A stretch of 64,000 bases of DNA from Blautia sp. (GCA_051880075.1 JBJENG010000013.1:7176-71175); one strand, 5' to 3'; positions 1 through 13,889 are shown, numbered from the stretch's first letter. Numbers and translations: made by a program. The notes: generated by a model from the letters alone, not told the origin.

Positions 1-2
1 CA

Positions 3-668
3 GGAGCAGGATTGAAAAGAAATGACATCCTTCTGAATGATAAGCACCATGTAGCAATGTACTGTGGAAACGGAAAAGAAGTGGAAGCATCCATCAACGA
101 GAAAGGAACCGCAACAGGAGGTCAGCCGGGAGACCAGACAGGAAAAGAGTTTCTGATCCGCTCATACCGAAACTACCCTTGGACACATGTTTTCAGACTT
201 GAAGAAAGTGGTACATCCGGTACATCTGAAAAGAAAACTGTTTCAGAAGTTGCCAAGGAAGTAATTGCCGGAAAATGGGGAAACGGAGATGACAGAAAAA
301 CTGCACTTACCAATGCAGGTTACAATTATTCGGAAGTACAGGCAGAAGTAAATAAGCTGCTTAGCGGACAAAGTTCTGTACCGAAGAAAACCGTAGAGGA
401 GATAGCAAAAGAGGTTATCGCCGGAAAGTGGGGAAACGGTGATGCAAGAAAGACTGCCCTCACAAAAGCTGGATACGATGCTTCAGCTGTCCAGAAAAAG
501 GTCAATGAACTCTTGTCTGGAACTTCCGGAAAGAAATCAATCACAGAGATTGCAAAAGAAGTAATCGCTGGTAAATGGGGAAATGGAGAAACAAGAAAGA
601 AAAAGCTGACAGCGGCAGGGTATGATGCCTCTGCGGTACAGAAGAAAGTAAATGAATTGCTGAAATAA
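3..668 (+). CDS. Phage endolysin, 3' part (NlpC/P60/amidase_5-type catalytic domain end plus three CW_7 repeats); truncated by window start
   Basis: DILLNDKHHVAMYCGNG motif; three copies of KTxxExAKEVIAGKWGNGxxRKxxLTxAGY; frame open to window edge. Confidence 0.9.
   Translation, partial: GAGLKRNDILLNDKHHVAMYCGNGKEVEASINEKGTATGGQPGDQTGKEFLIRSYRNYPWTHVFRLEESGTSGTSEKKTVSEVAKEVIAGKWGNGDDRKTALTNAGYNYSEVQAEVNKLLSGQSSVPKKTVEEIAKEVIAGKWGNGDARKTALTKAGYDASAVQKKVNELLSGTSGKKSITEIAKEVIAGKWGNGETRKKKLTAAGYDASAVQKKVNELLK
234..665 (+). repeat. Three CW_7 (Cpl-7) cell-wall-binding repeats
   Basis: Units start at about 234, 387 and 534. Confidence 0.9.
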
Positions 669-675
669 GCAGTAT

Positions 676-706
676 GCCTCGGTCCTTAAAAGACCGGGGC
701 TTTTTC
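676..706 (+). terminator. Intrinsic terminator after endolysin
   Basis: gcctcggtc-cttaaaa-gaccggggc followed by ttttt. Confidence 0.8.
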
Positions 707-940
707 TGTTTTAGATAAGTTTGGTGGTTCAGATAAAAGAATTTTTGTCAAGAAAAATAATGAACAAAATTGCAGAGTAATTTTTGACGAAAAGCGTCAC
801 AGCGGACAAATGAGAAAGTCTGCATACTCTCCTTCATTAAAAGCAAAAGAGTCCTAAAAAGAAAATTACAGCTTCCTACGGAATATCATGAAAAAGCAGG
901 ATGATGATTACAAATGTAATCAGTTTCTTCCTATTAAAAG

Positions 941-1200
941 ATGACTGTAAATGTGATGTCAGCAATGACATACACAATGATTGAAAAATGATTTTTTATC
1001 AAAGAATATCATCAGTAATTTGCTATGCCCCAAAATAAGAATGATACGAAAAATGTAAAGTAATATCTGGACAAAATGAACGAATGACTGGAAAAATGAT
1101 GTCACAATGACGGTGCTATATAATAAAATAAAAAATATAAATATTATATAAATATATATACGTGATACCTGTCACAAATGCCGTCACATTTTCAGTCATT
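941..1200. repeat. Iteron-like repeats flanking a 44-bp pure A/T tract (putative origin)
   Basis: ATGACTGTAAATGTGATGTCAGCAATGAC (941-969), ATGACTGGAAAAATGATGTCACAATGAC (1084-1111), inverted ATGACTGAAAATGTGACGGCATTTGTGAC (1199-1171); A/T only at 1117-1160. Confidence 0.6.
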
Positions 1201-1779
1201 CATTGATTCTCTTCTTATTGCTTCGTAAAGTCCGAAGTAATCTACTTTCTCCGGATGGAGATTCAGTAAAGATTGGAAGGTTATTGTTTTCTGGTTCGGG
1301 ACCTTCTGATCCAATGTCTTTGTTGAAATCACATAGAAATCCCACAACGATAAATCAAGTATATTTTGATCACGACTCATGGCAGTCCAAACGCAGAACA
1401 CGTATACGTCTGAGTGCCTGCAGTATTCTGATTTGTCAGAGTAGTTTCCAGTAGAGTCTAGTGATTTAGCTGGTGCTATACGAAAAGATATTCTCGCAGG
1501 ATGTTCGCTTTCCCAAGATTGTATGTATGCAGAAGATTTGACTTCCACTCTGATACCGTCCGGACTAAGTAAATCATATGAATCCATAGAAACTCGAAAA
1601 TTTGTTCGGGGGGGGGTATTATTACATTGAGTATTCATGGCTTCACGAACAATGAATTCTGCGAAAGCTCCTCGGTTTACATTCCGGATAATGTCAGAAT
1701 ATGCCCATGACCAGAAATCTAGCACAGAGCTGTCAAGCTCCTTGTCTCTAAAAGTAAGTTTTTCATTACCACTGTACAT
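1192..1779 (-). CDS. Hypothetical protein with PD-(D/E)xK nuclease-like motif
   Basis: RGAFAEFIV...YDLLSPDGIRVEVKSS; RBS gaggtg; internal C9 tract at 1608-1616. Confidence 0.6.
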   Translation of the reverse strand: MYSGNEKLTFRDKELDSSVLDFWSWAYSDIIRNVNRGAFAEFIVREAMNTQCNNTPPRTNFRVSMDSYDLLSPDGIRVEVKSSAYIQSWESEHPARISFRIAPAKSLDSTGNYSDKSEYCRHSDVYVFCVWTAMSRDQNILDLSLWDFYVISTKTLDQKVPNQKTITFQSLLNLHPEKVDYFGLYEAIRRESMND

Positions 1780-1840
1780 AGAATCACCTCAAATATGTTT
1801 CCTTTAGGATAACAAAGATGGTAACAAAAAACAATTACAC

Positions 1841-1901
1841 AATGTAAAAATAATGCTTGACAGTAGCGAACGCAAGAGTGCTACGATTACGCCACGATAA
1901 A
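1841..1901 (+). promoter_or_regulatory. Early promoter cassette P1
   Basis: TTGACA(1857)-19 nt-TACGAT(1882) with TG extension, followed by tACGccACGATAAA. Confidence 0.7.
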
Positions 1902-1949
1902 AACAAATTTAAAGTAGATTGCTGATTGATTTCATAAGGAGAAAAGCAT

Positions 1950-2189
1950 ATGACAAGAAGAAAAATGTTAGAACAGATTACCTATGAGCTTGAAGAGATT
2001 GCTGAAAAAGAAGCAATGTTTTTGTTTAGAACAGCAAGAAGAGCCGAGAAGCATGGATGTTCGTGGGAACTTATAGAAGGGCTCAGGGAAGAGGGATTCT
2101 GGTTGCATGACACAGCTGCTGCATATCCAGACAGATTGGTACATCCGGAAAGAGATTATAAAATGAAGTATGCATTTAAAGTAAAATAG
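1950..2189 (+). CDS. Hypothetical early protein
   Basis: ORF with RBS aaggag directly behind P1. Confidence 0.75.
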   Translation: MTRRKMLEQITYELEEIAEKEAMFLFRTARRAEKHGCSWELIEGLREEGFWLHDTAAAYPDRLVHPERDYKMKYAFKVK

Positions 2190-2198
2190 AGGAGGCGG

Positions 2199-2399
2199 AT
2201 GGATATGATAAAAATAAGAGTAACAAAGAAAAAAGTCAAAAATGAAGAAAGATTCTTTTTAGAGTATATTTACTACTTGGATGGAGGCAGAACAAAAGTA
2301 GTTCCTGTAAGATGTGAACCGAGAGGATGGAAAACTCTAAACGGAGCATTGAGGTTTGCGAAAAAATTAGGTTATGAAGTGATTCAGGGGGTGATGTGA
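2199..2399 (+). CDS. Hypothetical early protein
   Basis: RBS gaggagg; WKTLNGALRFAKKLGY motif. Confidence 0.7.
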   Translation: MDMIKIRVTKKKVKNEERFFLEYIYYLDGGRTKVVPVRCEPRGWKTLNGALRFAKKLGYEVIQGVM

Positions 2400-2590
2400 T
2401 GAAAAAAAGTTTAGAAGAAGCAATGAACAGGGCAAAACAGATGAGCGTTGAACATCCGGATATAGCATACGCTGTTATGGATAAGAAAAGAAAAAGAGCA
2501 GTTGTTACTTCGTGCGGTTTCGTCTTGAAAGAAAGAATACTTGAAGGATGGACGATGGTTGCGAAGTTTAAGAATGGAAAAGAAGTATAA
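2399..2590 (+). CDS. Hypothetical early protein
   Basis: Start overlaps upstream stop; RBS agggggtg. Confidence 0.7.
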   Translation: MKKSLEEAMNRAKQMSVEHPDIAYAVMDKKRKRAVVTSCGFVLKERILEGWTMVAKFKNGKEV

Positions 2591-2596
2591 CGTCAT

Positions 2597-2648
2597 AAAA
2601 CTGCTTGACTGCCAGCGAAACAGCCTGTTACGATGACGATACGATAAA
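2597..2648 (+). promoter_or_regulatory. Early promoter cassette P2
   Basis: TTGACT(2605)-18 nt-TACGAT(2629), then gACGatACGATAAA. Confidence 0.7.
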
Positions 2649-2693
2649 TCAATCCCCGTGATTTACCGAATAAACGGAAAGGAGGAAAGTCCG

Positions 2694-2855
2694 ATGGGGA
2701 AACGGAAGAAAAAGCCGGAAACGGACAAAGAAAAAGAACTGTTAGAAAAGCGGTTGCTTAAAGCACAAATTGCCGCCACCATTGCTGGAGTTATTGCTGG
2801 AACAATAACTGCTATATCAGCTCTGGTAACGGCAATCGCCACATGCTTCAAGTAA
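2694..2855 (+). CDS. Small basic-N-terminus, single-TM protein (type I toxin-like)
   Basis: RBS aaaggagg; MGKRKKKP... then hydrophobic AQIAATIAGVIAGTITAISALVTAIATCFK. Confidence 0.65.
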   Translation: MGKRKKKPETDKEKELLEKRLLKAQIAATIAGVIAGTITAISALVTAIATCFK

Positions 2856-2905
2856 ACTGTAAACAGTCCTCAAAGGCTTGGGAGTTTCTGCTCCCTTGCC
2901 ATTTG

Positions 2906-2934
2906 AGTTTAGCATAAAGGAGGATGAAAGTAAA
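2906..2934 (-). promoter_or_regulatory. Antisense sigma-A-type promoter pointing into the small TM gene
   Basis: Minus strand TTTACT-17 nt-TAAACT with TGn extension. Confidence 0.5.
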
Positions 2935-3128
2935 TGTTAAAAAAAGATAATAGAGTAAGCAGAACAGTACAGTACACAGCGTTATTACTCCTTGCCATAG
3001 AGATTATTGTTTGGACTATTAAGGGGATGAATGAATTTCTTCTGGTTGCAATCCTGGCAACGAGTTTTGTTGAAGTTTCTTCCTGTGTTATTTTACTTAG
3101 AAGAGCATTGGAACAGTTGGAAAAATAG
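2934..3128 (+). CDS. Small two-TM membrane protein
   Basis: RBS aaaggagg; two hydrophobic segments. Confidence 0.7.
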   Translation: MLKKDNRVSRTVQYTALLLLAIEIIVWTIKGMNEFLLVAILATSFVEVSSCVILLRRALEQLEK

Positions 3129-3133
3129 ATGTG

Positions 3134-3164
3134 AATTACAGCTGCTACGGTGGCTGTAATTTTA
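3134..3164 (+). terminator. Hairpin/terminator
   Basis: aattacagctgc-tacg-gtggctgtaatt followed by tt. Confidence 0.55.
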
Positions 3165-3194
3165 TGCCCGAAAACCGGGAGAAAGGATGAAAAG

Positions 3195-3962
3195 ATGGGA
3201 AGATTGAAACATTATCAGAATTGCGATGTAGTCATAGCTCAAGGAGATACTCCAGAATTAGTTGCGGATCAGGAAGACGGAATGGTCCATCAGGAGCTGA
3301 AGAATTGCAACACACATAACGGACTCAAGAAGCAGGACGGAGGAAAACGCTTCCTCACAGACAATGAGATTAAGATTCTTGTCGAGCAGTTTGTGAGAGA
3401 TGATGAAATAATCGCACAGACGTATGAAGAGATTTCAAAAAGAAGGAAAGATAAGAATTTCCAGTACAGCCTTGTGAAGCAGGGAGTTTCAATGACAATA
3501 GTTTCAAGATTTTGTGATATGGGAATTGCAAGACCGAGTGCAATGAAGCTGGCCATGGGAGTTGTCAATATCCTGTATGACCTGTATGTAGCTGAGTGTC
3601 AGGTTAAACAGAGAACAGAAAAGGAAGACGGTTCTCCGGTTGCTGAGATAGATGCTAATTTGGAAACTCCAGAAAACGATGAATCGGGTGAGTTGAAGAA
3701 AGAAGTTGAAGCAGACAACAAAGAAAAAATATCACAGAATATCAGAAAGATTATGGTTTCTCCGAAAAGTATCACATTAGAGAATGCAGTAATCGAAGCC
3801 GGGAAAATCAAGAGTCTCATGGAAATGATGGACAGCTATTATTATGATTATCTGTCTGCAGATGCCAGTGAAAAGATGCAGTCGTTCTACTGTGTGTTCG
3901 ATATCCTGAAGAAACGATATGAAGAATTTGAAGAAGGTTTACAGCACGTTATTTACGGATAA
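3195..3962 (+). CDS. Hypothetical protein
   Basis: Long ORF; RBS gaaagga before ATG 3195. Confidence 0.75.
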   Translation: MGRLKHYQNCDVVIAQGDTPELVADQEDGMVHQELKNCNTHNGLKKQDGGKRFLTDNEIKILVEQFVRDDEIIAQTYEEISKRRKDKNFQYSLVKQGVSMTIVSRFCDMGIARPSAMKLAMGVVNILYDLYVAECQVKQRTEKEDGSPVAEIDANLETPENDESGELKKEVEADNKEKISQNIRKIMVSPKSITLENAVIEAGKIKSLMEMMDSYYYDYLSADASEKMQSFYCVFDILKKRYEEFEEGLQHVIYG

Positions 3963-3992
3963 AAGTGTGGCTGTTATTTTTTTGACCGAAAT

Positions 3993-4071
3993 TGTAAAAA
4001 TATTGCTTGACACAGTACGCAGATGTAGACTACGATAACGTCACAATAAACAATTACAAATCAAATGGAGG
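3993..4071 (+). repeat. 79-bp promoter+RBS cassette P3 (direct repeat copy 1)
   Basis: Identical to 7578-7656 except one base; TTGACA(4007)-18-TACGAT(4031); ends in GGAGG. Confidence 0.95.
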
Positions 4072-4079
4072 AAAAGAAA

Positions 4080-4313
4080 GTGACAGTTAATGGTAGAAGA
4101 AGATTCGTAAGCAACACAGGGAAAAGATACTATGTAAGCAACATGTGCAAGCAGGATATCAAAGGAGAAGAAAAGTACAATCTGGAAGTCGAGAAAGACG
4201 GTAAGCAAAGATTGTGCTACGGTCCATTCCTTGAGCTGCTGAAATTCAAGACCATTAAAGAAGCACAGAGATACGTTCTCTACAACGAAATCACAATCGA
4301 AACAATGTGGTAG
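4080..4313 (+). CDS. Hypothetical early protein
   Basis: GTG start behind cassette RBS (ORF track starts at 4065). Confidence 0.7.
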   Translation: MTVNGRRRFVSNTGKRYYVSNMCKQDIKGEEKYNLEVEKDGKQRLCYGPFLELLKFKTIKEAQRYVLYNEITIETMW

Positions 4314-4326
4314 GAGGAAAGAGATC

Positions 4327-4533
4327 ATGATGAATAGAAGTAAGTCAGCAAAAAGAGAATTTTATTAGGACAGATACAATCCGGATAAGAAATGGGAAGT
4401 AGTAAAGATGGTCGGAGGATATTACCTCAGACAGTATGTGAAAGGTCAGCAGTTTGGAAACGGTCTCCGGACCACAAAGAAGTTCATTGAAAGCATCGGG
4501 ATATTTGACTTTGAAAGAGTTGAGTCGGCATAA
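4327..4533 (+). pseudogene. 68-codon gene interrupted by in-frame TAG
   Basis: RBS aggagg; MMNRSKSAKREFY*DRYNPDKKWEVVKMVGGYYLRQYVKG...; TAG at 4366-4368, frame continues to TAA abutting the next RBS. Confidence 0.7.
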
Positions 4534-4546
4534 GGAGGTGAGAGTG

Positions 4547-4726
4547 ATGGCATACACAAGGAAGACCATAGATGTTTGGGAGATGTATGTTGATTATGGA
4601 TGTGGATAGGAATATGAGCTGTCAGAGTACAGCTTGCAAGAAATCAAGAAGAGAAAGAAAGAGTACAAAGAGAATTGTCCTCAGTACCCGGTAAAAAATG
4701 TTAAGAAAAGAGAAAGGAAAAATTGA
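4547..4726 (+). pseudogene. 59-codon gene interrupted by in-frame TAG
   Basis: RBS aaggaggtg; MAYTRKTIDVWEMYVDYGCG*EYELSEYS...KKRERKN; TAG at 4607-4609. Confidence 0.7.
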
Positions 4727-4728
4727 TT

Positions 4729-5130
4729 ATGGCAACAAGAGAAGAAATGAAAGTTGAAGCATTGGATAGAATGAAAACTCTCAGCATCCAAGAAAATGCA
4801 ATTCGTGAGTTCAAAAATGAAGACAAGTTGAATAAGTCGGAAAAAGGGATCCTGTTTTGGATTTCGGATGAAGAAGAAAAGATGGTAAGAGACTGGGAGA
4901 AGTCTACCGGGAACATTGTTTACCATGCGATTTACAATGTGTTTGAGTTCGGAAGATGTCTGAGCCTGTTGTATGTTAGTGAGTATGATGAGGAATGGGA
5001 ATACGACAGAGAGGATATGAAAGAAGGAATTGCTATTGCACATTGCCTGAATCTTGATAATCCGCAGTGTTCGGAAAGTGGATCAATCGGTGTCAGACCG
5101 TGCTTCGGTGGAGTTGCAAGAATTTGGTAG
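4729..5130 (+). CDS. Hypothetical acidic protein
   Basis: ORF in operon, RBS aaagga. Confidence 0.8.
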   Translation: MATREEMKVEALDRMKTLSIQENAIREFKNEDKLNKSEKGILFWISDEEEKMVRDWEKSTGNIVYHAIYNVFEFGRCLSLLYVSEYDEEWEYDREDMKEGIAIAHCLNLDNPQCSESGSIGVRPCFGGVARIW

Positions 5131-5141
5131 GAGGTTTTCAG

Positions 5142-5603
5142 ATGGAACTGATTAAGTACAAGACAATTATGAAAGAAGAAGGAACAGTTGGGATAGTAAG
5201 AGAAAATGGATATGAAATCGAGTACAGGCAATTGGACAACGCAAGAAAGATAGAAACCGTAATGAAGGAAGCGTTCTCCATTCATAAAGAAACTGAAGAG
5301 TACCTGTACGAGATATGCTTTGATACGAAACTCAAACCGCTTGCAGTATTTGAAGTATCACACGGTACAGTAAATGGAACGATTGTATCGCCAAGAGAGT
5401 TTTTCCAAAAAGCATTGTTAGCTGGTGCGGTTGGAGTTGTAGCTGTTCATAATCATCCGACAGGATGCTGCGAACCGAGCAAACAAGATGACGAGACTGC
5501 TCGTAGCTTAAGAGAAGCCGGGAAACTTATCGGAATCGAACTTCTGGATTTTATGATTATTGGAAATGAAAGCTACAGCTATAGAGAATGCGGAAGATTG
5601 TAA
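5142..5603 (+). CDS. RadC-like JAB domain protein
   Basis: VSHGTVNGTIVSPREFF...HNHPTG...PSKQDD...LLDFMIIG. Confidence 0.9.
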   Translation: MELIKYKTIMKEEGTVGIVRENGYEIEYRQLDNARKIETVMKEAFSIHKETEEYLYEICFDTKLKPLAVFEVSHGTVNGTIVSPREFFQKALLAGAVGVVAVHNHPTGCCEPSKQDDETARSLREAGKLIGIELLDFMIIGNESYSYRECGRL

Positions 5604-5629
5604 AAATTTAGAGACAGGAGGGAAAGCGA

Positions 5630-5800
5630 ATGGCAGATAGAAGCAACCACAAACTGAATGAGGAAATTGAAAGACATATCCGGCAATGGGATGGAACAAT
5701 ACACGGTCAGTGTGTGAAGAATATGTACGAGAACGGAACCAGCTACGAAGGGATCTGTGAATATGCTGGAATCGACTATGAAGATTATGAAGATAGATGA
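5630..5800 (+). CDS. 56-aa acidic protein (not in ORF track)
   Basis: RBS aggaggg; MADRSNHKLNEEIERHIRQWDGTIHGQCVKNMYENGTSYEGICEYAGIDYEDYEDR. Confidence 0.7.
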   Translation: MADRSNHKLNEEIERHIRQWDGTIHGQCVKNMYENGTSYEGICEYAGIDYEDYEDR

Positions 5801-5894
5801 ATGTAAATACGTACAAAGTAGTTTGTGTGAAGAATTTGACATTCTATAGAATGTTGAAGATATAAATAATATTTAAGAATATGGAGGAAAAGAC

Positions 5895-6758
5895 ATGAGA
5901 GAAGAAATTTTAAGAGAATTAGTTGAAGAGGTAATGCAAGTAGCTGGGAAAGAGTATGAGGTTCGTAGTAATCTGGTAAAGAAGAATAACGATGTTGAAC
6001 TCAGGGCAATCATTGTGAGAATGCCGGACGAAGTAATATCTCCAACGATATATGTTGATAAGTACCTTGAAGGCATTGATAACGGACTGATGACAGCAGA
6101 GGAAGCTGCGAAGGAAGTGTTCAGTGTTTACGAGGACAGCAAGAACCAGATTTTAGGAATTGATATATCAAAGATGATGACCAAAGAATACATTCTGAAC
6201 CATGTGGAATATCAGATGGTTAATGCGGAACGTAATGCAGAGAGGATCCAGATAGTGCCTAATAAGAAGATTGCAGACCTTGCAGCACTCTACAGAACGG
6301 TCGTAAGTAATGATGAAAACAGAACAGCCAGTTACATTGTTACAAACGAAGCTATGGTTAATGCCGGTATCAACATCAAAGAACTTGATGAAGCAGCTGA
6401 ACGCAATACAGAAAAGAGTGGGTTTGTAATAGAGACCATTGCTGAAATGATGGGAATTCCGGAAATTAGCGAAGTTCCTCAGATGTTTGTATTGTCAAAT
6501 GCAAGAAAGACTAATGGAGCAAACATCATTCTGTACAAAAAAGAACTAGCAAAGCTTGCACAAAGAATTGGTGGAGACTTCTTCATCTTGCCATCCAGCA
6601 TTCACGAACTGCTTGCTATTCCTGTATCACAGGCTGAGACAGAACAGCTTAGACAGATGGTAAAAGAAGTGAACGATACTGAGGTTGCTCCAGATGAAAT
6701 TCTGGGATACGAAGTGTACCGATACAATAGTGAAACTGGAGAGGTTGAGATAACTTAG
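5895..6758 (+). CDS. DUF5688-family protein
   Basis: VKKNNDV...SPTIYV...MFVLSN...FFILPSSIHELL...MVKEVNDTEV motifs. Confidence 0.8.
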   Translation: MREEILRELVEEVMQVAGKEYEVRSNLVKKNNDVELRAIIVRMPDEVISPTIYVDKYLEGIDNGLMTAEEAAKEVFSVYEDSKNQILGIDISKMMTKEYILNHVEYQMVNAERNAERIQIVPNKKIADLAALYRTVVSNDENRTASYIVTNEAMVNAGINIKELDEAAERNTEKSGFVIETIAEMMGIPEISEVPQMFVLSNARKTNGANIILYKKELAKLAQRIGGDFFILPSSIHELLAIPVSQAETEQLRQMVKEVNDTEVAPDEILGYEVYRYNSETGEVEIT

Positions 6759-6800
6759 TAAGCAAATCAGTAGATGCAAATAGATTGGAGGAAGAACAGC

Positions 6801-7199
6801 ATGGAAGAAAAGTTAAGGATGGAGATGGAGATTGTGGTAACCCAAGAAGATATAGATGACATTATGTGTTCGGCTCTGGAAGGTGGAATCAATTACTGGT
6901 GTGATACAGCCAAGGTTCCGGAAGAAAAGAGAGTTGCCAGATGGGGACACGAACAGATAGCCAGAGATGGAGAGCTGCACATGCATCTGATTGAGCCATT
7001 CGATGACGATGATACGGAATGGTATATCTTGACAAAGGAACGGTTTATCGGTGGACTGGAGAAATATCTTAAAGAACCGAATCACGGATGCCTTGAAATG
7101 GACGGAAAGCATTTGGTAATTGACGCAGGAAACATTGATGCAAACGCAGCAGATATGATTGTCCAGTATGCTTTATTCGGAGAGATCGTCTTCGGATAA
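6801..7199 (+). CDS. Hypothetical acidic phage protein
   Basis: RBS ggagg; ALEGGINYWC...DANAADMIVQYALFGEIVFG. Confidence 0.8.
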   Translation: MEEKLRMEMEIVVTQEDIDDIMCSALEGGINYWCDTAKVPEEKRVARWGHEQIARDGELHMHLIEPFDDDDTEWYILTKERFIGGLEKYLKEPNHGCLEMDGKHLVIDAGNIDANAADMIVQYALFGEIVFG

Positions 7200-7212
7200 T
7201 TTTTTTAACAGA

Positions 7213-7232
7213 CAGTAAGCATATGCGTACTG
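7213..7232. promoter_or_regulatory. Palindromic operator-like site upstream of HTH gene
   Basis: CAGTAaGCATATGCgTACTG; reverse complement matches the P3/P4 spacer region at 15/20. Confidence 0.5.
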
Positions 7233-7352
7233 AAGGGAGATTTGAAGCTCTAATTGTTGCAAATACGGTTCAAAAGAAAGAATGGCATATATTTCTTCAG
7301 AACCGATTGCACATAGAAAATAAAAGCCTATATGGCAGAAAGGAGGTAGCGG

Positions 7353-7535
7353 ATGTCATTAAATGAGAATCTTAAAAAGCTGATTGAGGAAAACACCACG
7401 CAGGCAGAACTGGCAAAGAAGATGGGAATTCACAGACAGACTCTGAATGATTCACTCAGGAGAGATATGAGACTTACGAAGTTTGAAAAGATTGTAGATG
7501 CTCTGGGATATAAGGTTGTTTTCGTCAAAAAGTAA
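7353..7535 (+). CDS. Cro/XRE-family helix-turn-helix regulator
   Basis: TTQAELAKKMGIHRQTLNDSLRR; RBS aaaggaggt. Confidence 0.85.
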   Translation: MSLNENLKKLIEENTTQAELAKKMGIHRQTLNDSLRRDMRLTKFEKIVDALGYKVVFVKK

Positions 7536-7536
7536 T

Positions 7537-7568
7537 TTTTTGAGGTACATCCGGCAGTACCTCAAAAA
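7537..7568. terminator. Hairpin after HTH gene
   Basis: tttttgaggtac-atccggca-gtacctcaaaaa. Confidence 0.5.
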
Positions 7569-7577
7569 TGAAAATAA

Positions 7578-7656
7578 TGTAAAAATATTGCTTGACACAG
7601 TACGCAGATGTAGACTACGATAACGTCACGATAAACAATTACAAATCAAATGGAGG
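7578..7656 (+). repeat. 79-bp promoter+RBS cassette P4 (direct repeat copy 2)
   Basis: 78/79 identical to 3993-4071. Confidence 0.95.
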
Positions 7657-7664
7657 TAATCGTG

Positions 7665-7931
7665 ATGAGAAAAGAGTACAGAGAAATCAGAAAAATCAGA
7701 GCAGACAAACTTAGAATCTTATGTATCGAAGAAAACTGGTACACAAGAGGAGATTGCGAAGCATACAATCATCTGCTGTTTGATCTGGCAGGAAACAAAG
7801 AAAATATCACGACAGAAGATATCGTTGAGATTGCTCGGGATATTCTGGAACACAGTGAAACAGACATGGATATTGAAAGCATCTGCTACTACGTTGCAAG
7901 AATTTTAGATACATTCTTCGAAGAAGCATAG
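7665..7931 (+). CDS. Hypothetical acidic early protein
   Basis: ATG behind cassette RBS. Confidence 0.75.
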   Translation: MRKEYREIRKIRADKLRILCIEENWYTRGDCEAYNHLLFDLAGNKENITTEDIVEIARDILEHSETDMDIESICYYVARILDTFFEEA

Positions 7932-7947
7932 AGGAGGTACAGGGGAG

Positions 7948-8403
7948 ATGATGTATTCAGAATTTTTGAAGGGGACCGGAGCACCGGAAAACTCACAGAG
8001 CTATGAGCAGTTTCTGAAAATCGAACAGATTTATATGGACTGTGAGCATATGTCTAAAGAACAGGCATACAGGATTTGGAAGAATACATACGGGAAGGAA
8101 GTAAAAATGGCACGGAAGGCAAGAGAAGAAAGGATTAAGCTGCTTGCCATGCCGGAAGATCAGTACCGGAACCTTCCAGAGCATGACAGAGAGAGTATAG
8201 CGAATGAGCTCCATGAGCTTTTTTGGAACGCTTATTACAACCGGGATGATTCAACATGCAAGATAAGCAAAGACAATAGATGCTTTATCGACAGATTTGG
8301 GATTGTCTGGTTCGTGAAAAGAAGGGATGTCAGATGGTTCCACTACGATCTGTTCGCTTATAACGATGGAAAAGTAATTGATGCAAATTATTGTGAAAGA
8401 TGA
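7948..8403 (+). CDS. Hypothetical protein
   Basis: ORF with RBS, in operon. Confidence 0.75.
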   Translation: MMYSEFLKGTGAPENSQSYEQFLKIEQIYMDCEHMSKEQAYRIWKNTYGKEVKMARKAREERIKLLAMPEDQYRNLPEHDRESIANELHELFWNAYYNRDDSTCKISKDNRCFIDRFGIVWFVKRRDVRWFHYDLFAYNDGKVIDANYCER

Positions 8404-8417
8404 AAGGAGAATTCGAG

Positions 8418-8663
8418 ATGGAAGAAAAGAAAGTTTTAAGCTCTGAAGAATTTAAGGAGATTTGCAAAGAGGCTATGCCACACATAGAAGCACTGAAAGA
8501 TATTCTCGGAAAAAGAGATATCAAAAGTCTCGGAAGTTTGACTATTTGTGCAGATGGGTATTTGAACTTTGGAATCTACGATACAGGATGGGAAGTTGTA
8601 AGAGCCAGCAAAGATGACAAGGTACGCATCAGACACGAATATAAGATGGAGGTGGATATTTAA
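8418..8663 (+). CDS. Hypothetical protein
   Basis: RBS aaggag. Confidence 0.7.
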   Translation: MEEKKVLSSEEFKEICKEAMPHIEALKDILGKRDIKSLGSLTICADGYLNFGIYDTGWEVVRASKDDKVRIRHEYKMEVDI

Positions 8664-8857
8664 TGTTCCAGATGGAGATTTGCACTGACGGTGCAGCTTT
8701 CAAAGATCCATATACCGGAGAGGAGAACAAAGAATGTGAAGCATACGCAATTGCAGACATTCTCTTAAAGATATCAAAGTCTCTTAAAGTAGATGGAAGA
8801 AACTCCGGAGTTCTTATGGATGTCATCATTGCTGAAACAAAGAAAGGCAGAGTATGA
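8663..8857 (+). CDS. Hypothetical protein, possibly with scrambled C-terminus
   Basis: RBS ggaggt; stop/start overlap. Confidence 0.6.
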   Translation: MFQMEICTDGAAFKDPYTGEENKECEAYAIADILLKISKSLKVDGRNSGVLMDVIIAETKKGRV

Positions 8858-8981
8858 TGCAGAGAAATCAAGCGGATTATATGGCTATTTCAGGAGGAAA
8901 GAATGATAAGCACATATTTCTCCAGAAGAATGAAAACAAGCTGATAAATCGCCTATCAGGAGCTGAAAGGAGGTGGTATTT

Positions 8982-9053
8982 ATGAAGATTGCAAAGAAAT
9001 TCTTCAAGAGCACAAGAAAGCTGTTTAAGCAGATCATGAAGTTTGCGAATTAG
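8982..9053 (+). CDS. 23-aa cationic amphipathic peptide (not in ORF track)
   Basis: RBS aaaggaggtg; MKIAKKFFKSTRKLFKQIMKFAN; stop overlaps next RBS. Confidence 0.6.
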   Translation: MKIAKKFFKSTRKLFKQIMKFAN

Positions 9054-9065
9054 GAGGAATCAAAG

Positions 9066-9338
9066 TTGAACAGAGGAAAGAAAGTAATTCTGGAAGGAAG
9101 AAGCATACTGCGGAGAGAAGATTATAAGAGAGTAAAGAAGATGGACCGGCAGGAGATAGAGGAGTTCTGTAAGAATCTGTACATGAATGGATACAACGAT
9201 GGAAGAGAATCTGTTCCGGGAATTGATATTAATCAGGTCAAAGATGCTATTCTTGAGACAAAAGGTATCGGTCAGAACAGGCTGGCATCCATCATGGAAA
9301 GCATAGAGAAAAGATTCGGAGGGAAGAAAGATGAATAA
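9066..9338 (+). CDS. Hypothetical phage protein
   Basis: TTG start after aggagg; REDYKRVKKMDR...KGIG motif. Confidence 0.75.
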   Translation: MNRGKKVILEGRSILRREDYKRVKKMDRQEIEEFCKNLYMNGYNDGRESVPGIDINQVKDAILETKGIGQNRLASIMESIEKRFGGKKDE

Positions 9339-9555
9339 ACAGAGAAGAAAGAAATTGGAAAAAGCGTTCGAGATGATCGGAGAAGTCAAAGATATTCTGG
9401 AGGAAGTCAAAGGCGAAGAAGAGGAAGCTTACGAAAATCTGCCTGAGAGTTTCCAGAATGGAGAACGTGGAGAAGAGATGCAGGGTTACATTGAAATGAT
9501 TGACGAGGCATATGGATACCTGGAGGATGCAGAGAGTGTGGTAGAACAGATTTAG
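9331..9555 (+). CDS. Small acidic helical phage protein
   Basis: MNKQRRKKL...EEEEAYENLPESFQNGERGEEM. Confidence 0.8.
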   Translation: MNKQRRKKLEKAFEMIGEVKDILEEVKGEEEEAYENLPESFQNGERGEEMQGYIEMIDEAYGYLEDAESVVEQI

Positions 9556-9567
9556 GAGGAAAAGTAT

Positions 9568-10908
9568 ATGATACAGGAAATTGCATTGGACAAGCTGAAA
9601 GTCCATCCAAAGAATGTACGAAAGACGTACAATGATATTGATGAGCTTGCGGACAGCATTAAAGCTCAGGGGATTTTGCAGAATCTCACAGTAGTTCCAG
9701 ACACAGAAGATGAAGGAACATATCTGGTGGTTATTGGAAACAGAAGATTAACAGCAGCACGGAAAGCGGGGCTTAAAACAGCTCCGTGTTTCGTGGCTGA
9801 TATGGATGAAAAAGAACAGGCATCAATGATGTTGCTTGAAAATATGCAGAGAAGCGATCTTACAATACATGAGCAGGCATATGGAATTCAGATGGTTCTT
9901 GATCTTGGAGAAACGGAAGATGGTTTAGCGGAAAAGACTGGACTTAGCAAGAGTACAATCCGGCACAGATCAAATATTGCAAAGCTTAACCAAGATGTTC
10001 TAAAGGAGAAAGAAAAAGATGAGAGCTTCCAGCTGACACTTAGAGACTTATATGAACTGGAGAAGATTCCGGATATCAAGATGAGGGATAAGATTCTGAA
10101 AGAAGCAACGGATTCAAATAATTTAGCAAGTAAAGCGAAAAATTACGTTGAAGAGATGAAGAGAAAAGAGAACGAGAAGAAGTTCAAATCACTGTTCAAG
10201 AAGATGGGAATTCCTCCAGCTCCAAAAGGTACAGAGAATGAAATGTATTCTGGAAAGTGGGAAACGGTTAAGGAGTTTGAATTATCGAAGGAAGTTCCTA
10301 AGTCAATTAAGATTTCTAAAGAAGAATGCGAAAAATGTTTCCATATCACATACTGGAGAAGTATCAGAATCATCCGAAAGAAGGTTAAAGAAAAGAAAGA
10401 ACTTACTCCGGAGGAAAAAGCACAGAAAGAACGTGAGAAAAATAAGAGACAGCTGAAAGCTATTCAAAAAGAAATGGCTGCGGAAAGAGAAGATTTCATC
10501 CGTGTAGCTATTGAAAAGAAATTTAAGCCAGAGAAAATGAGTATGGAAAGTGTAGAGCGTAGATTGTTTAATCTTATGCTGGATTGCGAATGCTGGATGA
10601 ACCATAGTCCGATGTATAAGTTCCTGTTTGATAAGAAGTCATGGGAAGTCAAGGACGATGAAAGGGAAAAATTCAGAAAGACAATCGATGAGCTGCCTCT
10701 GTATAATCTGTACTTTGTTTATGCTGCAGGATCAGTAGCAGAAAAGGACACGACAGAATGGAACACGAAATACAACAAGAAGTCAGGAAGACTGTTGATG
10801 GAATTTGAGGACATTCTTTCAGACTTTGGATTCTCGTATAGCAAACAGGAATATAAGAAGGTTAGTGATGGAACGCACAAATTATATGCCAAGGAGGAAA
10901 GCAAGTAA
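9568..10908 (+). CDS. ParB/Spo0J-family protein
   Basis: HPKNVR...ELADSIKAQGILQNL...IGNRRLTAA...ENMQRSDL plus HTH. Confidence 0.9.
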   Translation: MIQEIALDKLKVHPKNVRKTYNDIDELADSIKAQGILQNLTVVPDTEDEGTYLVVIGNRRLTAARKAGLKTAPCFVADMDEKEQASMMLLENMQRSDLTIHEQAYGIQMVLDLGETEDGLAEKTGLSKSTIRHRSNIAKLNQDVLKEKEKDESFQLTLRDLYELEKIPDIKMRDKILKEATDSNNLASKAKNYVEEMKRKENEKKFKSLFKKMGIPPAPKGTENEMYSGKWETVKEFELSKEVPKSIKISKEECEKCFHITYWRSIRIIRKKVKEKKELTPEEKAQKEREKNKRQLKAIQKEMAAEREDFIRVAIEKKFKPEKMSMESVERRLFNLMLDCECWMNHSPMYKFLFDKKSWEVKDDEREKFRKTIDELPLYNLYFVYAAGSVAEKDTTEWNTKYNKKSGRLLMEFEDILSDFGFSYSKQEYKKVSDGTHKLYAKEESK

Positions 10909-11600
10909 TGAATGTAAAGATTATCAGCGATTATGGAGAGAACAGTTTTTCTGTCTCTCCAGAACAGGCAATGGACATTATCAAACACGCAATGGATTTC
11001 CACACAAGATATTCCAGAATGAACAAGATTAGTGATGAATTAGCTGAAGCTGAAATTCCGGGAAATGAAGGACCTGTTAATTGTAGGCATGAATTTGATC
11101 CACTGATTCAAAAAGAAGAAGATTATTCCGGAAACAAAAAGCACAGAAGAACAGACAGCTTGTTTGGAATGGACTGGGATAAAAAGAGTGAAGAATTTGA
11201 AAGTGAACCGGAAGTTGCAGAACCGTACTTTCACAGAGAAGAGTCATACAAAGGATTTTTACTGATTAAATGTGAAGAATGTGGAAAAATCAAAGGATTC
11301 TGCTCAAAGCACGAAATTACATATCATCAGTGCGAATGTGGTCACAGAACAGAGCTTCGTGACCTGAGACCTATGCATCTTAACTGCAAGTGCGGAAATC
11401 ATTACAAGTATATGACGAATATACAGGATGAGAATTTTGAATATACCTGTCTGAACTGTGGAAGTCCGGTAGATATGAAACTGAATGGAAGACGCAATGC
11501 TTTTGTAACTGTGGGGGGGGTAAAGACCCTGTTATGTCTGCCATTGCCAGAAAGTACGGAATGTCTATTTATTAAGGTGGAGGAAGAAACGTATGAATAA
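10908..11600 (+). CDS. Cys-rich zinc-ribbon phage protein
   Basis: CEECG, CECG, CKCG, CLNCG; G8 tract at 11513-11520. Confidence 0.75.
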   Translation: MNVKIISDYGENSFSVSPEQAMDIIKHAMDFHTRYSRMNKISDELAEAEIPGNEGPVNCRHEFDPLIQKEEDYSGNKKHRRTDSLFGMDWDKKSEEFESEPEVAEPYFHREESYKGFLLIKCEECGKIKGFCSKHEITYHQCECGHRTELRDLRPMHLNCKCGNHYKYMTNIQDENFEYTCLNCGSPVDMKLNGRRNAFVTVGGVKTLLCLPLPESTECLFIKVEEETYE

Positions 11601-12021
11601 AGTAATTTTGATGGGGAGGCTCACAAGGGATCCTGAAGTCAGGTATTCCCAAGGAGAAAATTCAACAGCGGTTGCCAGATATACTCTGGCAGTCGATAGA
11701 AAGTTTAAACGAGACGGAGAAGAGTCTGCGGATTTTATTGGTTGCGTAGCATTTGGACGACAAGGAGAGTTTGCAGAAAGGTATTTCCATCAGGGAATCA
11801 AGATTCTTGTAACCGGAAGGATACAGACCGGAAGCTACACAAATAAAGACGGAGTTAGAGTCTACACGACAGATGTTGTAGTTGAAGATCAGGAATTTGC
11901 AGAAAGCAAATCTACCAGTCAACAGAACTCTGGCCAGCAGAACAGTAGCGGATCAAGAAGCTCTTCTTCTGGAGATGGATTTATGAGTGTTCCGGATGAC
12001 AGCGAGCTTCCGTTCAACTAA
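11593..12021 (+). CDS. ssb: Single-stranded DNA-binding protein
   Basis: MNKVILMGRLTRDPEVRY...ELPFN. Confidence 0.95.
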   Translation: MNKVILMGRLTRDPEVRYSQGENSTAVARYTLAVDRKFKRDGEESADFIGCVAFGRQGEFAERYFHQGIKILVTGRIQTGSYTNKDGVRVYTTDVVVEDQEFAESKSTSQQNSGQQNSSGSRSSSSGDGFMSVPDDSELPFN

Positions 12022-12037
12022 AGGAGGAATTGTAGCT

Positions 12038-12238
12038 GTGGATATAAGAAAATGTCCGTTCTGTGGATGTAAAGACAGAAGAGTCGGAATCAGAAGAATG
12101 GGAAATAAAGGATACAGGGTGGTTTGTGGCAGATGCGGAAGCACTGGTCCACATGTAAGTATTTCTGATTATCAAACGAAAGCAGATGCTCAGGAAAATG
12201 CAATTGAAAGGTGGAATATGAGAGACAATGGAATTTGA
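12038..12238 (+). CDS. Lar-family restriction alleviation-like protein
   Basis: CPFCG...CGRCG...AIERWNMR; GTG after aaggagg. Confidence 0.75.
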   Translation: MDIRKCPFCGCKDRRVGIRRMGNKGYRVVCGRCGSTGPHVSISDYQTKADAQENAIERWNMRDNGI

Positions 12239-12488
12239 AAATTATGAATTAAAGCCATGTCCGTTCTGCGGAGGAACAGCAGATTTTGAAACAAAAGGAA
12301 ATATATCAAACCACACAGAGGTTGGATTTGATTTCGCGATTAAATGTAGTGAATGCGGAATCGAAATTCCGGGAAGGCATAAAGTTACGTTTATACTTGG
12401 AAAGCTTGGACAAATAAGTACAATTATTGACGAAAGGCAGATTGCAATGAACGACTGGAATAGGAGGGCTAAAAATGGATTATCATGA
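12228..12488 (+). CDS. Lar-family restriction alleviation-like protein
   Basis: LKPCPFCGG...CSECG...DWNRR. Confidence 0.8.
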   Translation: MEFENYELKPCPFCGGTADFETKGNISNHTEVGFDFAIKCSECGIEIPGRHKVTFILGKLGQISTIIDERQIAMNDWNRRAKNGLS

Positions 12489-12834
12489 AGCTATTGAGGT
12501 TTTAAAAGATTTCGATAGTCAGGTAAATGCAAAAGCAGATGGAGCTTATCAGACAAGAATAGAAAAGATGGCTTGCGATATCGGTATTTCTGTCATACAG
12601 GAATTTATTGAGTATAAGAAAATCGGAAATATAGATGACGTAAAATATGCTGTAGATAAGCAGCATCCAAGAAGTCCAACATACGAAGGAGATGGATACG
12701 CACCAAACGGAACTTTTGTGTGGGATGAATGGCTATGTCCAAATTGCGGACATAGATTTGAGGTCGAGTATGAAGAATACGATTACTGCCCTTATTGCGG
12801 TCAAGCGATAGACTGGAGCGAGAAAGATGATTGA
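12475..12834 (+). CDS. Phage zinc-ribbon protein
   Basis: CPNCG...YCPYCGQAIDWS. Confidence 0.8.
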   Translation: MDYHEAIEVLKDFDSQVNAKADGAYQTRIEKMACDIGISVIQEFIEYKKIGNIDDVKYAVDKQHPRSPTYEGDGYAPNGTFVWDEWLCPNCGHRFEVEYEEYDYCPYCGQAIDWSEKDD

Positions 12835-13270
12835 TGAGAAAAAGCTGATTGAAGAGCTTAGAGAAAAAGGAAAAGAATATGACAAAGAATGTGGATATTG
12901 GTTACAAAGAGGAGAACATGGAAGCAGATTGATTTGTGCCGGGAAATGCACTGGGATTGTCCAAGCAATGAAAATTGTTGAAAATCAGCCTCAAGTCGGA
13001 GTTTGGATTCCTTGTAGTCAGAGGATGCCAGAAGATGGAGATAACAGATTTTATATGTGCATTGTGGAGAACCATGAAGAAGAACCGCCTATGTTCTGCC
13101 AATATGAAGAAGGATATGGTTTTGGTTTCTGGAATGATATTTACGATGAACATACTTTAGGATTTGTTGATTCAGAGTTCAAAACCAATGAAGAACTTGG
13201 GTATGAAAAAGTTATCGCATGGCAACCACTTCCAGAACCGTACAAAGGAGAATGTTATGAAGAAGAATGA
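12827..13270 (+). CDS. DUF551-like phage protein
   Basis: WIPCSQRMPE...VIAWQPLPEPY. Confidence 0.8.
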   Translation: MIDEKKLIEELREKGKEYDKECGYWLQRGEHGSRLICAGKCTGIVQAMKIVENQPQVGVWIPCSQRMPEDGDNRFYMCIVENHEEEPPMFCQYEEGYGFGFWNDIYDEHTLGFVDSEFKTNEELGYEKVIAWQPLPEPYKGECYEEE

Positions 13271-13391
13271 AGCGTATAAGAGTTTCCGATGTATGCATTG
13301 TGCTTTCCTTGACAGAGATAGTGGTGTCTGTTTATGTGGTGATCCGGAAAGTGATGAATGTCCAAAAGATGAGGAGGTAAATGATGAATAA
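13257..13391 (+). CDS. 44-aa Cys-rich protein
   Basis: RBS aaggag; CMHC...CLC...CP; overlaps neighbours. Confidence 0.55.
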   Translation: MKKNEAYKSFRCMHCAFLDRDSGVCLCGDPESDECPKDEEVNDE

Positions 13392-13698
13392 GACGGACTA
13401 CAGATTAGTTAGAATTGCATGCCAATATGGGTACGATGCCCAGAGTAGACAGTGCATTGAAGAAATGTCCGAACTGACGAAAGCTATAAATAAGTTCTGG
13501 AGAAAACATCTTGACTGCGGGAGGAAGGAATTGTCCAGCGTTGATTTTCACAACAAAGAGTATGAAGATATTGTAGAAGAAATTGCAGATGTTCAGATTA
13601 TGCTGGACCAGATAAAGATGTTCATGGACTGCGAGGATTCTATCTATGATGTGATAGAAAAGAAAATTGATAGACAGCTGGAGAGAATAAGTAGTTGA
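13381..13698 (+). CDS. MazG-like nucleotide pyrophosphohydrolase domain protein
   Basis: IEEMSELTKAINK...EEIADVQIML. Confidence 0.8.
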   Translation: MMNKTDYRLVRIACQYGYDAQSRQCIEEMSELTKAINKFWRKHLDCGRKELSSVDFHNKEYEDIVEEIADVQIMLDQIKMFMDCEDSIYDVIEKKIDRQLERISS

Positions 13699-13832
13699 TC
13701 CGAGGATTGACTGAACAATGGTTTTGGGGTATCATGAATAAAAATCCCAGATTACAAAAGTATGATTTAGATGCGGTACTGTATCAATCGGGGATGCGAT
13801 GTTTATCCAGTAAAAGCTTCCGTATTTTAAAA

Positions 13833-13889
13833 ATAAGAAATCCCCGTTCATCTTATGATAGTATCACAGGATGAACGGGGATTTCTTAT
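13833..13889. terminator. Bidirectional terminator at 3' end of aroA
   Basis: 20-bp perfect inverted repeat ataagaaatccccgttcatc / gatgaacggggatttcttat. Confidence 0.8.

Follow-up and report, generated by a model that had tools for sequence, protein, structure and literature searches.

The presence of four similar promoter cassettes (P1-P4) within a 64,000-nucleotide stretch of Blautia sp. DNA, hereafter the window, raises the question of whether they form a single co-regulated early regulon, as a first-pass annotation had claimed, and whether the triple ACG repeat found in each of them is its shared operator. The common core described there, a -35 element followed by 18-19 nt and TACGAT, was recovered by our search, in which TTGACW-N17-20-TACGAT matched exactly four times in the window (-35 positions 1857, 2605, 4007 and 7592, all four on the + strand) against 0.05 matches expected from shuffles. 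The full cassette form, TGCTTGAC(A/T)-18/19 nt-TACGAT-nACGnnAC(G/A)ATAAA, was observed at only four sites in the 2.34-Mb assembly, all of them in the prophage, and the ACGnnAC(G/A)ATAAA continuation had 0 mismatches in each. The four cassettes were also the top-scoring sigma-70-like sites within 600-14000, and a gene with a ribosome-binding site starts 30-60 nt downstream of every one. Host promoters with TTGACW have TATAAT as their -10, and a half-motif search of 185,579 species genomes found promoter context in one of 50 matches, the other 49 being chance matches without a -35. A host-wide promoter feature was thus ruled out. Extending the scan to phage collections, as the annotation had suggested, returned about 20 uncultured phage contigs (IMG/VR) bearing 1-4 cassettes each, with a layout of lysin, minus-strand gene and arm up to the contig end, and no nucleotide match in the annotated phage collection.

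The cassettes sit at one end of a temperate siphovirus-type prophage. Past the endolysin gene come a single minus-strand gene of nuclease-like type, four operons that all run on the + strand and make up an 11.4-kb arm, and finally the host aroA (13886-15157, minus strand). The lone gene (1192-1779), divergent from P1 and 76-89% conserved in relatives, was considered as a divergent repressor and ruled out; its 195-aa product carries a D...EVK (PD-(D/E)xK-like) nuclease-type motif and had no HTH and no family or PDB match. Operon 1 (1950-2590) contains three small ORFs of 79, 64 and 63 aa without family, and operon 2 (2658-3962) two small membrane-type ORFs and a ~255-aa protein without family. 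Operon 3 (4065-7535) begins with a small basic ORF, includes a RadC-like JAB protein (5067-5603), a DUF5688 protein (5895-6758) and a phrog_2355 protein (6774-7199), and closes with a 60-aa XRE/Cro-type HTH gene (7353-7535). All four phage lineages that we examined retain this HTH gene, and in each it immediately precedes a cassette; it is a candidate Aca-like regulator. Operon 4 (7650-13270) starts with small ORFs, continues with a ParB/Noc-like protein (9568-10908), an SSB (11593-12021), two Lar restriction-alleviation genes (11987-12238 and 12228-12488), a Zn-ribbon protein and DUF551, and ends at the prophage/host junction before aroA.

RadC/JAB, ParB (as ParB_N), SSB and Lar had all been named in the first-pass annotation and were confirmed here, the last in two copies, while its MazG-like gene had no match in Pfam, NCBIfam or PHROGs. 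As for the small, often acidic ORFs that it described, about half of the arm proteins have a pI < 5.5. PADLOC and family searches of the arm gave no defence-system match except weak ParB-domain matches, and gene content was mosaic across this lineage of uncultured gut Firmicute phages. No strong + strand terminators were found between operons; a 12-bp perfect hairpin (7537-7568) between the HTH stop codon and P4 has a T-run on its minus-strand side only.

All four cassettes lie on the + strand. Cassette P1 (1841-1901) has its -35 TTGACA at 1857-1862, preceded by TGC and an A-rich upstream tract, and its -10 TACGAT at 1882-1887, with a 19-nt spacer containing TGn, the discriminator TACGCC and a predicted +1 at A1894 (ACGATAAA). 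The other three spacers are 18 nt; primary-sigma promoters typically have 17 +/- 1 nt. Cassette P2 (2589-2668; -35 TTGACT at 2605-2610, -10 TACGAT at 2629-2634, predicted +1 at A2641) also has TGn in its spacer, and its leader carries a dyad at 2639-2671 (ACGATAAATCA-N7-TGATTTACCG) that is kept in relatives. Cassettes P3 (3993-4074; -35 TTGACA at 4007-4012, -10 TACGAT at 4031-4036, predicted +1 at A4043) and P4 (7578-7659; -35 at 7592-7597, -10 at 7616-7621, predicted +1 at A7628) are 98% identical over 82 nt, and each has a predicted immunity-type operator half-site within the spacer (AGTACGCAGATG at 4014-4025 in P3; 7599-7610 in P4). The P3 leader is A-rich and, like those of P1 and P4, lacks structure (z from +0.4 to +0.9 for the three). 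With a conserved 5' dyad in type-B (P2) cassettes only, a shared 5' RNA element was ruled out. An antisense RNA partner of ACGAUAAA was sought and none was found.

The explanation that we favour, and which we hold as a whole to be moderately probable, is that P1-P4 are host primary-sigma (sigma-A-type) promoters, paralogues derived from the phage PR, with P3 and P4 under XRE-type control and the ACG block a core-promoter signature. T-12, A-11 and T-7 of the -10 are kept in all four cassettes, the -35 is TTGACA or TTGACT, an A-rich upstream tract precedes each of the four, the -10 of P1 and P2 is extended (TGn), and the Y-1/A+1 start context lies exactly 7 nt past the hexamer throughout. PR itself was located on contig C65 (C65:11587, minus strand) as TGCTTGAC-A AATAAGCTTTTGTTGAC-TATGAT, adjoining an XRE repressor and a serine integrase; it has a 17-nt spacer and a TATGAT -10, and aligns with P3 and P4 through the spacer. 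C65:1-13952 is colinear with the left arm of a complete relative (G003), and the assignment of C65 and the window, which are separate contigs, to one prophage rests on this colinearity with relatives. A phage-encoded sigma factor was ruled out, since sigma region 2 (Sigma70_r2) went unmatched in the genomes of four related phages, of which three have a completeness of at least 91%. Region-4-like HTH matches were observed in these genomes, all of them sub-threshold.

A palindrome, AGTAMGCAWATG..TAC, appears to be a better-supported operator than the ACG repeat. A 20-bp palindrome (CAGTAAGCATATGCGTACTG) at 7213-7232, upstream of the 60-aa HTH gene, is of the operator family also present in the P3/P4 spacers and at PR on C65, and was kept in relatives with symmetric changes (GGTAAGC..GCGTACC). 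The 12-mer AGTAMGCADATG matched four times in the window, against 0.06 expected, once in each of the P3 and P4 spacers and once in each arm of the 7213-7232 palindrome; five of its six matches genome-wide were at these window sites and the PR operator (C65:11598). The operators at PR and in the cassette spacer change together, since the variant ATGTACGCAT is found at both places in G003 (there in the type-A cassette) and AGTACGCA at both in the window phage. Another lineage, G004, has a different palindrome (CTTACTNNNNAGTAAG) three times in 57 kb, all within cassettes. In the P3 and P4 spacers the left half-site is perfect and the right half degenerate (14/20 to the full palindrome), and part of the likeness to PR could perhaps have been inherited from it without function. 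An RNA hairpin could account for the palindrome at 7213-7232 just as well, the leader containing it having z = -2.6.

The operator in P3 and P4 is of the family that adjoins the repressor, so a pattern of repression in the lysogen and expression at entry is plausible for these two. The palindromic operator is absent from P1 and P2, and their spacers were ruled out as copies of another phage operator, since no other copies were found elsewhere in the phage. The claim of one co-regulated early regulon therefore stands only in part: the promoters are paralogous and element-specific, they head consecutive operons with early or anti-restriction-type genes (two Lar, SSB, ParB-like, RadC), and P3 and P4 have the operator, but a single regulon of all four is unproven because P1 and P2 lack it.

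The other element shared by the cassettes is the ACG block, which coincides with the -10 hexamer, discriminator and +1. It stays constant despite differing spacers, as the first-pass annotation had observed: in comparisons among P1, P2 and P3, identity is 19-31% in the spacers and 71-79% in the 14 nt after the hexamer. As TACGAT is also invariant across 44 distinct cassettes (in a search that permitted one mismatch), the block is under selection in this lineage. Homologues of the gene at 7650-7931 in more distant phages lie behind ordinary TTGACA-17-TATAAT-type promoters, and therefore the block is not tied to that gene family.

The annotation took the triple ACG for a shared operator, and on this reading a dedicated arm repressor would bind the tandem units over the -10/+1 region of all four promoters, giving a burst at entry followed by shut-off as with Reg576 on plasmid p576. 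We regard this as rather unlikely, although several features speak for it. The block spans -11 to +5, a classical repressor position, and is besides the -35 the only element common to all four cassettes; the non-consensus C and G of the hexamer never vary among the 44 cassettes, with TATGAT in the paralogous PR; and four p576 promoters with direct TTATCCC repeats offer a precedent (PMC6294495). The units (ACGAT-n-ACGnn-ACGAT) recur with a 5-6 bp period, and the outer two, separated by 11 bp, share a helix face. Against a shared operator, the third unit decays in relatives to ACGAAA, GCGAAA, ACAGAA or ATAGAA (ACGAAAAC, GCGAAAAC, AAGATAAA, ACAGAAAAC, ATAGAAAC), the middle CG is displaced by 1 nt in relatives, even between cassettes of one genome (G004), and no copy of the block was found outside promoters. 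No ribbon-helix-helix or other direct-repeat-binding protein was found among the arm ORFs in Pfam, NCBIfam or PHROGs, and the XRE HTH, of a type that normally reads palindromes, is the one DNA-binding protein conserved in the arm.

A broader version, in which some phage or host factor recognises tandem 5-6-bp ACG units across -10/+1, either as a new small arm repressor or as a read-out of base modification, seems doubtful to us, and yet the invariant C and G at -10/-9 are more specific than kinetic tuning alone needs and favour a sequence-specific reader. The phage encodes a sugar-aminotransferase, dehydratase and TAGT-like glycosyltransferase module, a putative source of modification. Cytosine hypermodification of the CGs by TET/C5-methylase enzymes was rejected, with no match to Tet_JBP or DNA_methylase; the negative is weak, as the Tet_JBP control likewise matched in no genome.

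That the cassettes are strong but unregulated promoters, serving cargo expressed in the lysogen (morons) and resembling one another through duplication and gene conversion only, is improbable. The arm does occupy the usual moron position, after the lysis genes and beside the attachment site, the 98% identity of P3 and P4 together with two identical cassettes in G003 points to ongoing conversion between copies, and P1 and P2 have no immunity-type operator. However, conserved blocks around unalignable spacers go beyond what conversion explains, P3 and P4 do have this operator, and SSB, ParB/Noc-like and Lar proteins are early-function types and not typical lysogen cargo. At lambda PR', AACGAT causes a sigma-dependent promoter-proximal pause, and the second ACGAT, (C/T)ACGAT at -1 to +5, could similarly act as a -10-like element in the initially transcribed region, perhaps for loading an antiterminator onto long terminator-poor operons, but this is very improbable: its A2 and T6 are kept 11 bp past the true -10 in P1-P4 and the operons have no strong terminators between them, yet many orthologous cassettes have lost T6 or A2 (ACGAAA, GCGAAA, ACAGAA, ACGGAA), no Q-like gene or spacer element common to all cassettes was seen, and the discriminator CG is left unexplained.

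Under the PR-derived explanation, P1-P4 would be duplicated relatives of the immediate-early PR, read by the host primary sigma factor, each starting one of the operons in the accessory arm that separates the lysis genes from the right end of the prophage. P3 and P4 would keep a half-palindromic immunity-type operator between -35 and -10 and the most likely agent of their shut-off would be a dimer of XRE type, whether the prophage repressor or the 60-aa HTH protein of the arm as an Aca-like autorepressor; they would fire without that protein, at entry or induction. P1 and P2, sharing only the core promoter and differing in spacers and leader dyad, may be differently controlled or expressed in the lysogen. 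The ACG block would consist of TACGAT, a discriminator that contains CG, and the start of the transcript (A+1 C G A), a lineage-specific signature kept by selection that, with the 18-19-nt spacer, probably tunes open-complex formation relative to PR. A dedicated ACG-binding protein is possible but not indicated by the data. We infer all of these regulatory steps from sequence.

Much of this arrangement has parallels. The immunity operators of lambda (OL/OR) and of phage P1 (C1, scattered over many operons) are reused at dispersed promoters, and here too a repressor-adjoining operator family recurs at distant promoters (P3, P4) and before the HTH gene, which would tie the accessory operons to the lysis/lysogeny switch. 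Unlike those systems, the predicted operator is in only two of four cassettes, half-degenerate and inside the -35/-10 spacer, and the promoters themselves appear to be duplicated PR copies. In acr-aca operons a strong promoter drives anti-defence genes and a terminal HTH autorepressor, and the Listeria AcrIIA1 loci sit after the lysin gene. Similarly, the P3 block of small uncharacterised genes ends with the gene for the 60-aa XRE HTH protein, next to which lies a dyad akin to the P3 spacer, and the locus follows the endolysin; in contrast, it has four promoters over 11 kb and not one short operon, and the operator is also at PR. Searches of the arm against Pfam, NCBIfam and PHROGs returned generic HTH_3 and PHROG regulator matches and no named anti-CRISPR or Aca family.

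Reg576 of the Bacillus plasmid p576 is a ribbon-helix-helix protein that binds as a dimer of dimers to dual TTATCCC heptamers with a 2-bp gap, upstream of the -35 or before the ribosome-binding site (PMC6294495). Its regulon shares with ours four similar promoters before establishment/anti-restriction genes and short repeats near the core promoter, whereas here the element is a phage and the ACG repeats lie over -10/+1; neither a ribbon-helix-helix family match among the arm ORFs nor dual TTATCCC heptamers were found in the arm. Conjugative-plasmid leading regions (PMC11541004) are likewise reported to be co-directional arrays of ssb, ParB-like and anti-restriction genes with many small ORFs of no assigned function, but the promoters here appear to be double-stranded sigma-A and not single-strand Frpo-type, and the locus is phage-borne and not oriT-proximal.

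With two of four promoters carrying a predicted phage-switch operator, the locus therefore looks like ordinary phage wiring plus one unexplained conserved stretch, and current concepts are unchanged unless the ACG block has its own reader. Such a reader would give all four operons of the 11-kb putative anti-defence island a common entry-specific burst, separate from the palindromic operator. PR (17 nt, TATGAT) and its four putative duplicated copies (18-19 nt, TACGAT and CG discriminator) offer a clean natural experiment on core-promoter tuning. With about 27 mostly uncharacterised genes, including restriction-alleviation and DNA-handling functions, the arm forms a compact set delimited by promoters, and its conserved cassettes serve as an inexpensive sequence tag for locating such arms in metagenomes and help in picking early-expressed candidate anti-defence genes.

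The pattern TTGACW-N17-20-TACGAT was observed four times in the window (C13:7176-71175 of a 2.34-Mb assembly in 89 contigs), compared with 0.05 expected from shuffles. All four copies (P1 to P4) lie on the + strand, with -35 elements at 1857, 2605, 4007 and 7592, and each is directly continued by ACGnnAC(G/A)ATAAA with no mismatches, bearing out the repeated cassette described in the first-pass annotation. These were also the top sigma-70-like sites within 600-14000. Aligned, the cassettes share a TGC immediately 5' of the -35 and, further 5', an A-rich tract (TGTAAAAATA). P1 has a -35/-10 spacer of 19 nt; in P2, P3 and P4 it measures 18 nt. Spacer identity among P1, P2 and P3 was only 19-31%, while the 14 nt after the hexamer were 71-79% identical among the same three. 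P3 and P4 are 98% identical across 82 nt; these two copies (3993-4074 and 7578-7659) flank the entire 3.6-kb P3 operon, including its HTH gene, and recombination of one with the other would remove that operon. In G003, a complete related phage record of 55.7 kb from IMG/VR, the identical cassettes are instead the first and fourth, and this difference in the identical pair points to within-genome homogenisation of the copies.

The cassettes are predicted to be promoters of the host primary sigma factor, since no sigma region-2 gene was found in the four related phage genomes searched. The TACGAT hexamer retains T-12, A-11 and T-7, and P1 and P2 have an extended -10 (TGn). An invariant A, the seventh base past the hexamer and preceded by a pyrimidine, is the expected start, which gives A1894, A2641, A4043 and A7628 as the predicted +1 positions of P1 to P4. 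The motif was not equally frequent in host promoters, as TTGACW promoters of the host mostly have TATAAT as their -10; TTGACW...TACGAT occurred seven times genome-wide, four times as the cassettes and three times in unrelated sequence. We found no host preference for TGC preceding TTGAC.

Gene order and the host flank place the cassettes in an arm of 11.4 kb that runs from the lysis module to the right end of the prophage, where each heads one of four co-directional operons. Positions 3-668 encode the C-terminus of an endolysin with CW_7 repeats; tail-size ORFs lie upstream on the contig, and host aroA and tyrA follow the arm from 13886. Every gene from 1950 to 13270 reads on the + strand, in a stretch of strongly positive GC skew. 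A lone 195-aa gene on the minus strand (1192-1779) follows the lysin and encodes a D...EVK nuclease-like motif; it had no family, PADLOC or PDB match, and was kept at the same place in related phages (76-89%). With 77 bp between its start and the P1 -35, the promoter of this gene must overlap P1. Arm products include a RadC-like JAB protein, DUF5688, a phrog_2355 protein, a 60-aa XRE HTH protein, a ParB/Noc-like protein, SSB, a Zn-ribbon protein, DUF551 and two Lar restriction-alleviation proteins, whose genes are adjacent and overlapping (11987-12238, 12228-12488; Pfam Lar_restr_allev 4e-10, NCBIfam anti_R_Lar 1.5e-10). A MazG-like gene, also named in the first-pass annotation, was supported by no library searched. 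From the first P3 gene to the ORF at 4723-5130, positions 4327-4726 hold only ORFs of 41-51 aa in an operon that is elsewhere tightly packed.

No full motif was found outside the four cassettes in the 2.34-Mb assembly. Scanning one genome per species (185,579 species) for a half-motif returned 50 places, one of which, in a Ruminococcus MAG, has a -35 in position; the other 49 lack it there and were set aside as chance matches. Phage collections, where a scan had been proposed, did contain the cassettes: the full motif was observed in 20 stretches from about 15 IMG/VR phage contigs, with 1-3 per stretch or contig, and a looser pattern recovered a fourth copy in most of these contigs. The order in G003 is serine integrase, XRE repressor, early/replication genes, terminase, head and tail, endolysin and the minus-strand nuclease-like gene, followed to the contig end by four cassettes with their operons. 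Gene order is the same in two further IMG/VR records, G001 and G004; this shared order indicates that the arm is part of a temperate siphovirus-type genome, and in the circular phage form it is predicted to lie between lysis and attP/int. An unrelated gut phage (G008) with a homologue of the gene at 7650-7931 has a duplicated promoter cassette of its own, TTGACAAAAAATTTTAAATATGTTATACT, at 33248 and 35522 (-). Repeated promoters seem to be common in the accessory arms of these phages, with the version differing per lineage.

The left 12.6 kb of G003 is colinear with C65:1-13952, on a second contig of the same assembly, and C65 and C13 are thus most likely arms of a single prophage. C65 carries the immunity region of the prophage: an XRE repressor (11627-11971), a serine integrase (12219-13952) and, in front of a Cro-like gene, the divergent promoter PR (TGCTTGAC-A AATAAGCTTTTGTTGAC-TATGAT). 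PR aligns with P3 and P4 across the -35, spacer and -10, differing in its 17-nt spacer, TATGAT and a discriminator without CG, an alignment which suggests that the cassettes are duplicated and modified copies of PR. The same 13,952 nt (locus L166 covers 1-11700) also encode RecT, a DUF3799 nuclease, a DnaC/IstB-like ATPase, RusA, and a module, conserved in G003, of a DegT aminotransferase, a PseB/CapD-like dehydratase and a methyltransferase-like gene. This module gave a marginal match to a TET-associated glycosyltransferase; no TET or C5-methylase was found to accompany it, the TET negative being weak, and its targets may be DNA, the cell surface or the virion.

A 20-bp palindrome, CAGTAAGCATATGCGTACTG, lies at 7213-7232 between the phrog_2355 and HTH genes. 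Its half-site pattern, AGTAMGCADATG, has four matches in the window, where 0.06 would be expected: in both palindrome arms and in the P3 and P4 spacers. Of six sites genome-wide, the fifth is directly 5' of the PR -35 and the sixth, within a coding region, was rejected as a chance match. In relatives the palindrome is retained in front of the HTH gene, its changes being symmetric (GGTAAGC...GCGTACC), and the spacers of type-A (P3/P4-like) cassettes carry AAGTAAGCAAATG. The G003 variant, ATGTACGCAT, occurs at three sites: at PR, in a type-A spacer and past the nuclease-like gene. Listed as this third site is an immunity-type operator copy, ACATATGCGTACAT, at reverse-complement 42633 between the endolysin and nuclease-like genes; it is far from recognisable promoters and could be a looping partner for PR or cassette operators. 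G004, a more distant relative, has a different palindrome, CTTACTNNNNAGTAAG, three times in 57 kb, each time within a cassette (spacer or +10 to +26), and a variant of it in the PR spacer. In each lineage some arm cassettes therefore appear to have a putative dyad operator in common with the immunity region. The P1 and P2 spacers are unrelated, with no further copies found, and P2 has a leader dyad of its own, CGATAAATCA-N7-TGATTTAYCG, kept in relatives. Candidate binders of the shared dyad are the prophage XRE repressor and the 60-aa HTH protein, which have no specific similarity to one another; the HTH gene was present in all four lineages, invariably directly before a cassette.

The first ACG unit lies inside the -10 hexamer, the second inside the 6-nt discriminator, and the third forms transcript positions +1 to +3. 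TACGAT was invariant across 44 distinct cassettes in a search tolerating one mismatch, and the discriminator CG was present in every cassette; together with conservation beside unalignable spacers, this favours selection on the block. In more distant phages, genes homologous to the first gene of P4 are preceded by ordinary TTGACA-17-TATAAT-like promoters, and the block therefore appears lineage-specific. It is probably a core-promoter signature which, with the 18-19-nt spacer, would detune the cassettes relative to PR. The third unit varies in relatives (ACGAAAAC, GCGAAAAC, AAGATAAA, ACAGAAAAC or ATAGAAAC) and the middle CG is displaced by 1 nt, even across the six G004 cassettes, which argues against a fixed 20-bp operator, as do the absence of block copies outside promoters and the failure of family searches of the arm ORFs to recognise a ribbon-helix-helix or other direct-repeat-binding protein. 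We consider a dedicated protein binding the block unlikely. One further idea, a pause element formed by (C/T)ACGAT at -1 to +5, fits the window cassettes but not many orthologues. An RNA-level explanation was rejected, with the P1, P3 and P4 leaders unstructured and no antisense partner found.

In function the cassettes may resemble the dispersed immunity operators of lambda, P1 and epsilon15, and acr-aca operons. The analogy to p576 made in the first-pass annotation holds only in form; Reg576 is a ribbon-helix-helix protein targeting dual TTATCCC heptamers (PMC6294495), and neither that regulator type nor that operator was found here. Arm gene content recalls plasmid leading regions as outlined in PMC11541004, from which the cassettes appear to differ in being ordinary double-stranded promoters. 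Within a lineage of uncultured gut phages, P1 to P4 with their conserved ACG block represent a genuine, clearly defined promoter family, and the putative operator suggests a partial coupling of this family to the immunity switch.
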